In this document: positions 2,148 to 4,409 of the stretch, one piece after another
Layout: each line of letters opens with the position of its first letter
How positions within the stretch are numbered: position 1 is the first letter of the stretch
IMG/VR virus record: IMGVR_UViG_2734482545_000008
Source: a virus
Taxonomy: Duplodnaviria > Heunggongvirae > Uroviricota > Caudoviricetes
Direction: 5' to 3' (one strand)
Length of the DNA: 4,409 nt
The notes under the pieces: model-generated
What the model saw: only the letters and a program-made list of their open reading frames with translations
The model's database searches: none
Told to the model about the DNA's origin: nothing
Program-made: the position numbers and the translations under genes

Positions 2148-2294
2148 TTAAATTTAGCACTGTTAAAAATTTAATCCTTAACCGGAGGGATTTCTGCACC
2201 CTCAAATCATCAGGAGACCACCCGAAAGGGCGGGGAGCAGTCACACATCTGTTTCCGATAGCCCCGTTCTAATGCTACACTCTTTGATATTTTT

Positions 2295-2981
2295 ATGACC
2301 CCAATAAACATATTTATGACAGTTGCTGATTTCAAACGGCCCAAATTGGAGCTCCCAAACGGGGCAAACAAACTACTACTGCACTCTTGCTGTGCTCCAT
2401 GTTCCGGTGAGGTGATGGAGGCGCTTCAGGCCTCGGGAATCGACTACACCATCTTTTTCTACAACCCGAACATTCATCCTCAGAAAGAGTATTTAATTCG
2501 TAAGGATGAGAATATTCGCTTTGCTGAACAACACGGCGTGCCGTTTATTGATGCTGATTACGACACAGACAACTGGTTTGAACGAGCCAAAGGAATGGAA
2601 TGGGAGCCCGAACGAGGGATCCGTTGCACCATGTGTTTTGACATGCGTTTTGAGCGGACAGCGCTGTACGCCGCTGAAAATGGTTTCAGTGTGATCAGCA
2701 GTTCACTGGGCATTTCACGCTGGAAAAATATGCAGCAGGTTAACGACTGTGGGCGGCGAGCCGTCGCGCATTATCCGGGCATGGTGTACTGGGATTATAA
2801 CTGGCGCAAGCAGGGCGGCTCGTCCCGTATGATTGAAATCAGCAAGCGCGAAAAATTCTATCAGCAGGAATATTGTGGCTGTGTGTATTCTCTGCGCGAT
2901 ACCAATCTACACCGCAAATCTCAGGGACGCCCTCTTATCAAAATTGGTCAACTCCACTACGGTAAAGAAGAGAAGGAGTGA
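2295..2981 (+). CDS. queH: QueH-family (DUF208) epoxyqueuosine reductase-like Fe-S protein, 228 aa
   Basis: Cys signature [11 protein letters not shown] near the N-terminus, [10 protein letters not shown] mid-protein and EYCGCVYS near the C-terminus, which I recognise as the conserved Cys/His pattern of DUF208/QueH. Start is uncertain: ATG 2295 or ATG 2316, neither with a clear SD. Stop TGA 2979-2981. Confidence 0.78.
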
Positions 2982-3002: not shown

Positions 3003-3032
3003 TTGATTTCATATTGGCGAGGTAAGTAGAAT
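3003..3032 (+). promoter_or_regulatory. Sigma70-like promoter candidate: TTGATT, 18-nt spacer, TAGAAT
   Basis: -35-like TTGATT 3003-3008 and -10-like TAGAAT 3027-3032, in the intergenic region after queH and pointing into the masked block. Hexamer match only; not verified. Confidence 0.3.
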
Positions 3033-3130
3033 GACTGCGGGTGCTTGAGGCTATCTGCTTCAGGCATGAACACCAAAAGGCAGATAGAGAAAAGCCCCAG
3101 TTAACATTACGCGTCCGGCAAGACGCTTAA

Positions 3131-3471
3131 NNNNNNNNNNNNNNNNNNNNNNNNNNNNNNNNNNNNNNNNNNNNNNNNNNNNNNNNNNNNNNNNNNNNNN
3201 NNNNNNNNNNNNNNNNNNNNNNNNNNNNNNNNNNNNNNNNNNNNNNNNNNNNNNNNNNNNNNNNNNNNNNNNNNNNNNNNNNNNNNNNNNNNNNNNNNNN
3301 NNNNNNNNNNNNNNNNNNNNNNNNNNNNNNNNNNNNNNNNNNNNNNNNNNNNNNNNNNNNNNNNNNNNNNNNNNNNNNNNNNNNNNNNNNNNNNNNNNNN
3401 NNNNNNNNNNNNNNNNNNNNNNNNNNNNNNNNNNNNNNNNNNNNNNNNNNNNNNNNNNNNNNNNNNNNNNN
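3131..3471. other. Run of 341 N (masked or unsequenced block)
   Basis: Directly visible. Bracketed by a promoter-like element upstream and an intrinsic terminator downstream, so it probably hides a short + strand transcription unit. Confidence 0.95.
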
Positions 3472-3501
3472 GTCAGGCATCCTCAACGCACCCGCACTTA
3501 A

Positions 3502-3544
3502 CCCGCCCATCGCTGTGATCTCTCAGCGTTTCGGCGGGTTTTTT
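3502..3544 (+). terminator. Rho-independent terminator (nested GC hairpin plus U-tract)
   Basis: CCCGCC (3502-3507) pairs with GGCGGG (3533-3538); inner stem CGCTG (3511-3515) pairs with CAGCG (3524-3528); followed by TTTTTT at 3539-3544 and more T-rich sequence. Orientation matches + strand transcription; comparable to the tR-type terminators in the lambda nin region. Confidence 0.55.
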
Positions 3545-3564
3545 GTTGTTTATTTCCGGTGAAT

Positions 3565-3673: not shown

Positions 3674-3961
3674 ATGAAAATCGAAGAATTGCGTGAAATT
3701 TTTAGTGAAAATGGCCTCTATGCTGTGCGCGTTGAGAATGGAGCGATTGTCAGCCATTGCCGCATTAGATGTTTGCAATCTCAACAAAGGAAGAGCGGTG
3801 CTGTGTTATTTTATTTTTGTAATGGACTTCTGACGGACGGTTTTATTTTGCGTGAGGACGAATTTGTCACATCATTACGGGTTTTGAAAGAGATTGGTTT
3901 TAAGGCTGGTTTTCTGCTTTTGCTGAAGAATAAACTCATCTACAATCTTGAGCAGGATTGA
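3674..3961 (+). CDS. Hypothetical small protein, 95 aa, AT-rich coding sequence
   Basis: ATG 3674 preceded by GGAAGGA (3660-3666); stop TGA 3959-3961. No family recognised. Composition looks AT-richer than the replication genes (by eye, not computed). Confidence 0.5.
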   Translation: MKIEELREIFSENGLYAVRVENGAIVSHCRIRCLQSQQRKSGAVLFYFCNGLLTDGFILREDEFVTSLRVLKEIGFKAGFLLLLKNKLIYNLEQD

Positions 3962-3999
3962 ACTCCTGCTGTGTAACACCGTGCCACCGGAGAAAGCCG

Positions 4000-4353
4000 A
4001 TGGCACATATACAACTGGTCAAACAAACCTCTTCCGGATTACTTCTCCCGGCGACGCCGGAGAGTTGCGATTTTCTGCATCAAATCAAAATAGGTGAGTG
4101 GATACACGCAGACTTTAAGCGTGTGTGTAACTACGCATTCCACAAGCGTTTTTTCAAACTCCTGCAACTGGGTTTCGATTACTGGACTCCGGTCGGTGGG
4201 GCGATCACGCCTCGCGAACGAAAACTGGTGTCCGGTTTCGTTGATTACCTGTGTGAATCAGTAGGCCGGGAACATACGCCAGCTCTGAGCGAAGCCGCAG
4301 AGCAATTGAGGTGTACTGGCAATAGCGGACACTACCATTTGTTCTTTTTTTAA
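4000..4353 (+). CDS. Hypothetical protein, 117 aa
   Basis: ATG 4000 preceded by GGAG (3989-3992) with a 7-nt spacer; stop TAA 4351-4353. The track's longer version starts at TTG 3958 with no SD. No family recognised with confidence. Confidence 0.6.
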   Translation: MAHIQLVKQTSSGLLLPATPESCDFLHQIKIGEWIHADFKRVCNYAFHKRFFKLLQLGFDYWTPVGGAITPRERKLVSGFVDYLCESVGREHTPALSEAAEQLRCTGNSGHYHLFFF

Positions 4354-4409
4354 GCAGCCATCTGATGATATTTTTCCCTGAAGGCTGCCGGGGAGATATT
4401 CCCCAGACG

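Follow-up and report, generated by a model that had tools for sequence, protein, structure and literature searches.

The window, by which we mean the whole stretch of 4,409 nucleotides that was analysed (IMG/VR virus record IMGVR_UViG_2734482545_000008, Caudoviricetes), carries a gene of the QueH family downstream of a set of phage replication genes encoding an O-like protein, the DnaC-like YdaV and a DUF977 protein. The gene is followed by the 5' part of a hok/sok locus, which runs into a masked block. The features on which the following analysis is built are these:

2245..2315, plus strand: 5' region travelling with queH, beginning at a mosaic junction at 2245, where homology starts in 63 of 85 related loci
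2253-2258, plus strand: weak -35 element, TTCCGA, paired with TGCTACACT
2273..2281, plus strand: TGCTACACT, an extended -10-like element (TGn plus TACACT) lying 34 nt before the ATG at 2316, recognised by comparative conservation and of presumed function
2295..2315, plus strand: upstream in-frame ATG and seven extra codons, probably 5' leader rather than coding, from the insertion in locus L067 and the starts of homologues
2316..2981, plus strand: queH coding sequence, 221 aa plus stop (Pfam PF02677; PDB 7lc5, E 5e-22; 17 invariant columns; AlphaFold2 model; RefSeq WP_012421537.1 at the same coordinates; pN/pS 0.035)
2373..2405, plus strand: motif with Cys25, Cys26, Pro28 and Cys29 (CCAPC; 221-aa numbering), aligning with Thermotoga C9, C10 and D13
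2622..2651, plus strand: motif with Arg103, Cys104, Cys107 and Arg111, invariant in alignment A1 and aligning with Thermotoga RCERC
2868..2891, plus strand: EYCGCVYS motif (Tyr186, Cys187, Gly188, Cys189), invariant in alignment A1 and aligning with Thermotoga YCGCVFS
3003..3032, plus strand: promoter-like TTGATT-18-TAGAAT, which opens the hok/sok locus and shortly precedes the Rfam sok match, found by consensus scan only
3039..3098, plus strand: 5' part of the hok/sok locus (Rfam RF01794, sok; 53.9 bits, E 2.2e-10), ended by the mask
3131..3471, plus strand: masked block, hiding the hokD toxin gene (51 aa) according to the near-identical locus L001
3500..3544, plus strand: stem-loop ACCCGCCC...GGCGGGUU leading into a run of six U (3539-3544), terminator-like by folding

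The queH ORF at 2295-2981 on the plus strand (228 aa), which is part of the ORF set of the window, matches the Pfam profile PF02677 (QueH) over positions 1-174 of 175 with 220.6 bits (E 1.9e-65) against a cut-off of 23.5 bits, a score that places it far above chance as a genuine feature and upholds the QueH/DUF208 assignment made in the initial annotation. QueH was the sole domain detected in the Pfam search, in which a cobalamin-binding domain was absent, while the NCBIfam profile search of the same ORF matched no QueH model. A sequence search of the PDB returned entries of Thermotoga maritima QueH only (7lc5, 7lc7, 9deu, 9d86 and 9dco, E about 5e-22), the last two of which are the C9S and D13N mutants, respectively. 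The three motifs that had been read in the ORF are found at its residues 27-37, 110-119 and 192-199 (EYCGCVYS), and the alignment of metal ligands proposed along with them is equally favourable, since all six cysteines of the solved Thermotoga structure (CC, CxxC and CGC) line up with cysteines of the window protein. The window protein differs at the position of Thermotoga Asp13, which is occupied by Cys; among the full-length representatives of 50%-identity clusters (n=60) this column holds Cys in 57 and Asp in 3, so that the CCAPC form of the window is the majority state of the family. Every one of the 17 columns that are invariant in alignment A1, which contains 35 sequences down to 35% identity, is present in the window protein (C25, C26, P28, C29, N52, R62, E99, R103, C104, C107, R111, K137, Q184, Y186, C187, G188 and C189 in 221-aa numbering).

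The structural comparison points in the same direction. The AlphaFold2 model (pLDDT 95.6, pTM 0.91) superimposes on 7lc5 with an rmsd of 1.2 A and a target-normalised TM of 0.93 in a Foldseek search of the PDB, the top five matches of which are all Thermotoga QueH entries (rmsd 1.2-2.0 A, target-normalised TM 0.91-0.93); TtuA and LarE, which come after them, match much more weakly. With Thermotoga QueH (7LC5/7LC7; queuosine complex 9DEU) the window protein thus has in common the Pfam family, the fold and the CC/CxxC/CGC columns, while the two share only about 30% identity and the window protein is longer by about 19 residues at the N-terminus and about 25 at the C-terminus, the latter forming a basic tail that is common to other enterobacterial QueH proteins. 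RefSeq has an identical protein under the name QueH (accession WP_012421537.1; Shigella sonnei/E. coli), whose original deposition, from Shigella sonnei Ss046, described it as a conserved hypothetical protein/COG1636; the protein sits in a 90% cluster of 2,308 members. The assignment in PHROGs is phrog_3217, "unknown function", whose profile starts at residue 34, past the CCAPC motif, and this constitutes a gap in phage annotation, in which the first cysteine motif is cut off. Taken as a whole, the profile, alignment and model comparisons confirm the ORF as a bona fide, full-length member of the QueH/DUF208 family, and our best reading is that it encodes a cobalamin-independent, iron-sulfur epoxyqueuosine reductase, with catalysis predicted from family membership.

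The 5' end of the gene needs to be qualified. Although the ORF of 228 aa described initially is present, its start at 2295 should probably give way to the second in-frame ATG at 2316, most likely the true start of a protein of 221 aa: RefSeq places the start of the identical protein there, the starts of chromosomal homologues align with it, and in locus L067 an insertion of 1 nt between the two ATGs puts the one at 2295 out of frame. The putative transcription start, moreover, would fall a mere 7 nt or so ahead of 2295. The spacer of 147 bp lacking a Shine-Dalgarno sequence was correctly described, as the upstream ORF ends at 2147 and neither candidate ATG (2295 or 2316) is preceded by such a sequence. 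The leader of queH is A/U-rich and unstructured (-5.1 kcal/mol, z 0.05).

Regarding genomic context, a prophage integrated next to ybhA in E. coli FDAARGOS_944 (locus L001) matches the window with 99.8-99.9% identity. Its first part contains integrase, excisionase, RecE/Gam, Rha, cI/cro, YdaT, the O-like protein, the DnaC-like YdaV and DUF977, and these are followed by a 118-aa zinc-ribbon ORF, QueH, hokD, DUF1367/DUF1364/DUF1133, four tRNAs, lysis genes and head genes. The position between ydaV/DUF977 and hokD is found in prophages that possess integrase, cI/cro, lysis and head genes; the earlier view of the gene as prophage cargo situated after replication genes is therefore sustained, in several prophage contexts. 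Downstream in the window's own prophage there is an insertion of IS600, and this prophage may be defective.

A different outcome awaited the masked block at 3131-3471, whose mask does not preserve the length of the hidden stretch and which had been suggested to hold tRNAs or other functionally linked genes. In L001, the stretch between the same flanks is annotated 'type I toxin-antitoxin system toxin HokD'. Adjoining the block in the window is the Rfam RF01794 sok match at 3039-3098, which covers model positions 1-58 of 157 and stays below the gathering score (53.9 bits versus 59) because the mask truncates it; the stretch of this match is annotated sokW in phage 933W. In most related loci hok lies 200-250 nt past the queH stop. 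Judged from these homologies, the masked block is a hokD/sok type I toxin-antitoxin locus and tRNAs within it are ruled out, the assignment of hokD itself resting on the near-identical relative since the bases of the window are masked there. Unmasking by way of the L001 counterpart thus yields hokD/sok, and genes for tRNAs are met only further on: in 37 QueH prophage loci they lie about 2-7 kb downstream and comprise CAU (Met/Ile2), Arg, Thr, Gly and Lys, with none of the GUN-anticodon tRNAs (Asp, Asn, His, Tyr) among them. Any tRNA substrate of the enzyme must consequently come from the host. The queH-hokD setting is comparable to the relBE-hokD arrangement of the Qin prophage of K-12.

How might queH be transcribed in such a setting? 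The sequence TGCTACACT (2273-2281) is unchanged across 19 of 19 upstream variants and recurs without change in the Erwinia-like contig L086, where it lies 31 nt ahead of the chromosomal queH ATG. Each of the eight lineages examined has a -10-like hexamer that ends 31-35 nt upstream of the ATG; in the six others it reads TGCTAAAAT, TGCTATTTC, TATACT, TATAAT, TAGACT and TATACT. The consensus promoter scan found no sigma-70 site upstream of queH and did not flag TGCTACACT, a candidate that it missed because the -35 element is weak; given this blank scan, the proposal of a promoter rests on comparative conservation. That conservation suggests that queH was acquired along with an extended -10 promoter-like element of its own. 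The terminator scan detected no terminator-like site between the replication genes and queH, so read-through from the early operon may occur as well, and none from the end of queH (2981) to the hok locus, which leaves queH without a terminator of its own. The first strong terminator-like hairpin downstream (3500-3544) comes after hokD, at the end of the hok transcript; the region 3472-3550 folds with -25.3 kcal/mol (z = -3.08), and the simple scan overlooked the hairpin because its loop is long. Two other candidates for regulatory elements were rejected: the hairpin CCACCC-GAAA-GGGCGG at 2218-2233, considered as terminator or regulator, is not significant (z -0.64) and has no U-run, and control by a cobalamin or preQ1 riboswitch found no match in an Rfam scan of the whole window with E up to 1, which returned sok only.

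These signals bear upon an alternative in which QueH would serve the lytic phase only, being transcribed with the early-right (pR-type) operon once the phage is induced, to tune the wobble modification of host tRNAs for the translation of late genes, and silent in the lysogen. The gene does follow the replication genes immediately and in the same direction, no terminator-like site intervening, the consensus scan recognises no sigma-70 promoter upstream of it, and the viable isolated phage HannyBb retains it; furthermore, phage infection of Shewanella raises Q and the expression of queG (bioRxiv 10.64898/2026.03.05.709803), indicating that the oQ-to-Q step can respond to phage. Yet the extended -10-like element conserved from chromosomal queH argues for independent transcription, the gene is under strong purifying selection also in defective Rac-type prophages that are unable to complete a lytic cycle, and remodifying a stable tRNA pool within one lytic cycle would seem to bring small gain. 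For these reasons we regard a purely lytic function as unlikely.

The promoter-like element leads to the question of where the gene came from. Outside its own cluster, the closest relatives of the window protein are encoded by chromosomal queH genes of other Enterobacterales, with 80-90% identity and in non-phage neighbourhoods: an Erwinia-like contig has the order purL-queH-glrK-glrR-glnB-hmp-glyA, the Providencia gene adjoins tmcA and purC, and those of Photorhabdus, Ewingella, Pantoea, Dickeya and L303 (90%) lie in other housekeeping contexts. These chromosomal proteins have the same length and termini as the window protein, and their genes the same -10-like element and leader spacing, but they are placed among housekeeping genes with no phage genes nearby, whereas the queH of the window lies in a prophage beside hokD. 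Homology to the window starts exactly at 2245 in 63 of the 85 related loci, 71 nt before the ATG at 2316, and in nearly all of these 63 it continues through queH into hok/sok, while upstream of 2245 at least five different neighbours occur, among them DUF977, the zinc-ribbon ORF, an XF1762 fragment and a methyltransferase. The queH and hok genes nearly always travel together. By these sequence relationships, the gene is shown to be of chromosomal origin, from another member of the Enterobacterales.

Morons, accessory phage genes expressed from promoters of their own, are recognised by their position at a module boundary of a prophage and by patchy presence among related phages, and queH fits on both counts. 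Like the morons of lambdoid phages, it combines a candidate promoter element, a module boundary, restriction to some related prophages and flanks formed by mosaic junctions; it departs from them in having no terminator of its own and in its cargo, for it encodes an enzyme of tRNA modification and not a surface, virulence or toxin-antitoxin function.

The distribution of the gene is wide within E. coli. Of 5,426 complete E. coli genomes, 995 contain a queH coding sequence (985 of them with a coverage of 80% or more); it is annotated QueH in every E. coli row among the matches listed, and its carriers include O104:H4, an O157:H7 strain, EAEC 042 and APEC O1; the hok/sok part of the query, by comparison, matches 4,342 genomes. 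In agreement with the earlier statement that hosts of the E. coli type use QueG, queG is present in all 5,426 genomes, so that every carrier of queH has both enzymes, queG being core and chromosomal while queH is accessory and phage-borne. The backbones that harbour queH comprise the ybhA-adjacent prophage, defective Rac-type prophages next to trkG and a Qin/Stx-like prophage with dicB and relBE; a survey of related prophages, as had been suggested, thus finds the gene recurring between replication genes and hokD in several backbones. Among isolated phages, HannyBb carries queH under the label hypothetical, and is the only convincing case in a tblastn search of 50,697 deposited phage records; the other 24 matches were set aside as unannotated virome fragments or implausibly large records. 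The viral contigs with queH in IMG/VR number 189-212, and all those retrieved are of the enterobacterial type. Generalised peptide patterns add only about 20 IMG/VR contigs over the E. coli-specific patterns, and since those listed were enterobacterial, the idea of QueH in phages of other phyla was dropped. In one further locus, L162 (88% identity), queH lies beyond the integrase at the contig end and may for this reason be a host gene.

In evolutionary terms, the presence of two enzymes for one step in the same cell raises the possibility that the phage gene is a functionless passenger, maintained through linkage to the hok/sok addiction module and through mosaic recombination junctions. Several observations would accord with this: queH and hok are rarely separated, queG is already present in every host, and to our knowledge no phenotype or physiological difference between oQ-tRNA and Q-tRNA is known. 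Deletion of queG gave no growth change in one cobamide study (PMC11841063), and these two points together leave the selective benefit of queH unexplained. A functionless passenger would, however, gather nonsynonymous changes and disruptions, and this is contradicted by the variation of the gene. Across the 84 loci, 19 nucleotide alleles translate into no more than 7 protein variants, with 53 of the 64 segregating sites at codon position 3; the mean pN/pS among the 19 alleles is 0.035 even as pS, the synonymous divergence, reaches 0.26; no frameshifted or truncated copy occurs among the 84 loci; and the catalytic and ligand residues are all intact. The gene is also kept in Rac-type remnants next to trkG that are devoid of structural genes. 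To judge from its alleles, queH is maintained as a working protein under strong purifying selection, and we consider the passenger explanation very improbable.

If the protein works, could it have been recruited to another substrate, be it a 7-deazaguanine in phage DNA, a salvaged free nucleoside, or a target connected with the evasion of defence or of a tRNA-targeting toxin? Rare accessory genes of phages situated by toxin-antitoxin loci sometimes have counter-defence functions, which counts for such recruitment, as does the use of 7-deazaguanine chemistry by phages discussed below; PADLOC gave no meaningful defence match for the queH locus. The identity of 80-90% to housekeeping QueH, with conserved sites that have not diverged, argues against a change of substrate, and we know of no report of epoxyqueuosine in DNA. 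Phages do modify their DNA by 7-deazaguanine chemistry, and the clusters responsible (DpdA with FolE/QueD/QueE/QueC; PMC6884629) resemble the present case in being phage-borne genes of the queuosine/archaeosine pathway; these clusters, however, produce preQ0-type bases for incorporation into DNA, whereas the window holds a single late, tRNA-specific step and no DpdA. Neither DpdA/TGT-like genes nor QueC/D/E or FolE are found in 25 kb of the near-identical prophage (40 annotated features), and the ORFs of the window likewise include no DpdA/TGT-like or preQ0 synthesis gene. The role in 7-deazaguanine modification of nucleic acid entertained in the initial annotation consequently finds no support and was rejected for DNA, and we deem recruitment to any new substrate the least probable of the explanations considered, scarcely to be expected.

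The remaining explanation relies on the biochemistry of queuosine. E. coli must import B12. The duf208 genes reportedly complemented an E. coli queG mutant in the 2017 work of Zallot et al. The E. coli enzyme QueG (yjeS), which depends on cobalamin and a [4Fe-4S] cluster, catalyses the same reaction as the QueH family, the reduction of epoxyqueuosine, on the same four tRNAs (PMC5372724); it is not homologous to QueH and needs cobalamin (PMC5175355), is listed among the cobamide enzymes of E. coli (PMC11841063), and has QueH as its established non-orthologous replacement (PMC5372724). The B12 dependence of the step in E. coli goes back to Frey et al. 1988, as cited in PMC5175355 and PMC5372724. 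Because QueG is the host enzyme in E. coli, B12-independent maturation of queuosine by a prophage QueH is a reasonable prediction. The viruses surveyed by Hutinet et al. 2019 (PMC6884629) had no QueA, QueG or QueH, and our literature search, which combined QueH, DUF208 or epoxyqueuosine with phages or prophages, yielded no publication about a phage-borne QueH.

The explanation that we favour, and hold to be probable, is that the window encodes a functional QueH derived from an Enterobacterales chromosome, carried as a moron by lambdoid phages and predicted to finish the queuosine of the host without cobalamin. According to this scheme, a lineage of lambdoid temperate phages of E. coli/Shigella would have captured a housekeeping queH of Enterobacterales together with its native promoter and leader, after which the gene would travel as a unit with hokD/sok between the replication module and the nin/antiterminator region. 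In the lysogen it would be transcribed from its own extended -10 promoter and, after induction, also by read-through of the early-right operon. Acting on the Asp, Asn, His and Tyr tRNAs of the host, the enzyme would then reduce epoxyqueuosine-34 to queuosine-34, making the completion of queuosine in the lysogen independent of B12 supply. Since QueG, the sole chromosomal enzyme of E. coli for this step, needs imported cobalamin, the prophage would free queuosine completion from B12. The promoter activity, the expression in the lysogen, the enzymatic activity and the fitness benefit of queH we infer from the comparisons presented above.

The identification of the gene as QueH is not new, for RefSeq already names it so; enzyme family, reaction and kind of genetic context are likewise known. 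What appears to be unstudied is a lineage of temperate phages with a strongly conserved queuosine enzyme of the tRNA branch that is redundant to the B12-dependent enzyme of the host. We tentatively suggest, as a possibility somewhat short of probable, that a temperate phage hereby converts the tRNA state of its host, with QueH made from its own promoter relieving about 18% of E. coli strains of the need for a cobalamin supply at the oQ-to-Q step. It would then be the first phage-borne enzyme specific to the queuosine tRNA branch. A second oQ-to-Q enzyme, mobile as well as strongly conserved, is in any case found in about one sixth of E. coli genomes, each already equipped with QueG, and such conserved redundancy points to a selective value of finishing queuosine without cobalamin. 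If this is true, the selection acting on queH would imply a contribution of Q, beyond that of oQ, to fitness in niches where cobalamin is scarce, for instance in a gut in which other bacteria sequester B12.

Upstream of the mosaic boundary at position 2245, where queH adjoins the phage backbone, the window contains the following elements:

1311-1733, DUF977 protein, matching the PHROG 'Ren-like exclusion protein' family
1791-2147, ORF of 118 aa preceding queH, with a weak zinc-ribbon match and membership of phrog_1621, a phage protein family of unknown function
2218-2233, hairpin CCACCC-GAAA-GGGCGG, directly upstream of the queH junction

The stretch from the replication to the nin region commonly holds variable cargo, of which the DUF977 gene and the 118-aa ORF are typical. 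The stem of the hairpin is a perfect CCGCCC/GGGCGG in several related loci, in which the upstream genes differ; for the hairpin of the window taken alone, folding is not significant (z -0.64) and there is no U-run.

The phage protein family phrog_3217, labeled 'unknown function' in PHROGs, matches the window protein (2316-2978) at 460 bits. The profile of this family has 188 positions, the first of which corresponds to residue 34 of the window QueH, and therefore the underlying phage gene calls start at an internal Met, without the first cysteine motif, CCAPC. The queH gene of the isolated phage HannyBb is also annotated as hypothetical. QueH homologues were further found in the phage records CAKLQH020000001.1, CAKLQF020000001.1, and OR844989.1, and in the MT83xxxx 'Bacteriophage sp.' fragments, which are implausible as phage genomes and probably include bacterial chromosomal DNA. 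Among these records are 'Acinetobacter' and 'Staphylococcus' phage entries of 280-380 kb, together with short unannotated contigs of fecal viromes.

Two masked blocks of the window differ in length from their counterparts in L001, the reference prophage locus of E. coli that is 99.8-99.9% identical: The 75 N at 1220-1294 correspond to 314 nt forming the 3' part of the DnaC-like ydaV, and the 341 N at 3131-3471 to 281 nt containing hokD. ORFs that read across the masks, for example 789-1733, are artefacts. tRNA arrays that vary between QueH prophages lie ahead of the lysis genes, at least about 3.3 kb downstream of queH:

L001 15471-15781, tRNA array; equivalent positions in other loci

The arrays contain no queuosine substrate; their tRNAs are CAU (annotated as Ile and so probably Ile2 with lysidine), Arg-UCU, Arg-UCG, Thr-UGU, Gly-UCC, and Lys-UUU.

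Similarity with the reference prophage ends at position 4306, and the last ~100 bases of the window (4307-4409) match IS600, an IS3-family element having many copies across E. coli genomes. The insertion disrupts the DUF1367/NinB-like gene (ORF 3958-4353), whose profile match is confined to positions 1-102 of 198. This interrupted end fits a Shigella-type source, and the prophage is possibly defective, consistent with the interruption.

Other settings of queH were also found. In the IMG/VR metagenome contig L154 there is a viral QueH that has diverged further, to 83% identity; the stretches concerned are:

L154 5778-8627
L154 10969-11781

About 1.5 kb separates this QueH from a CI-like repressor (HTH plus peptidase S24), and a colicin M-like ORF is nearby; this phage-like setting differs from that of the E. 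coli prophages. In the Erwinia-like contigs L086 and L087, queH is chromosomal, between purL and glrK (5345-6666). At this site no gene is known in E. coli K-12, which suggests that queH is ancestral in enterobacteria and was lost from the Escherichia lineage.
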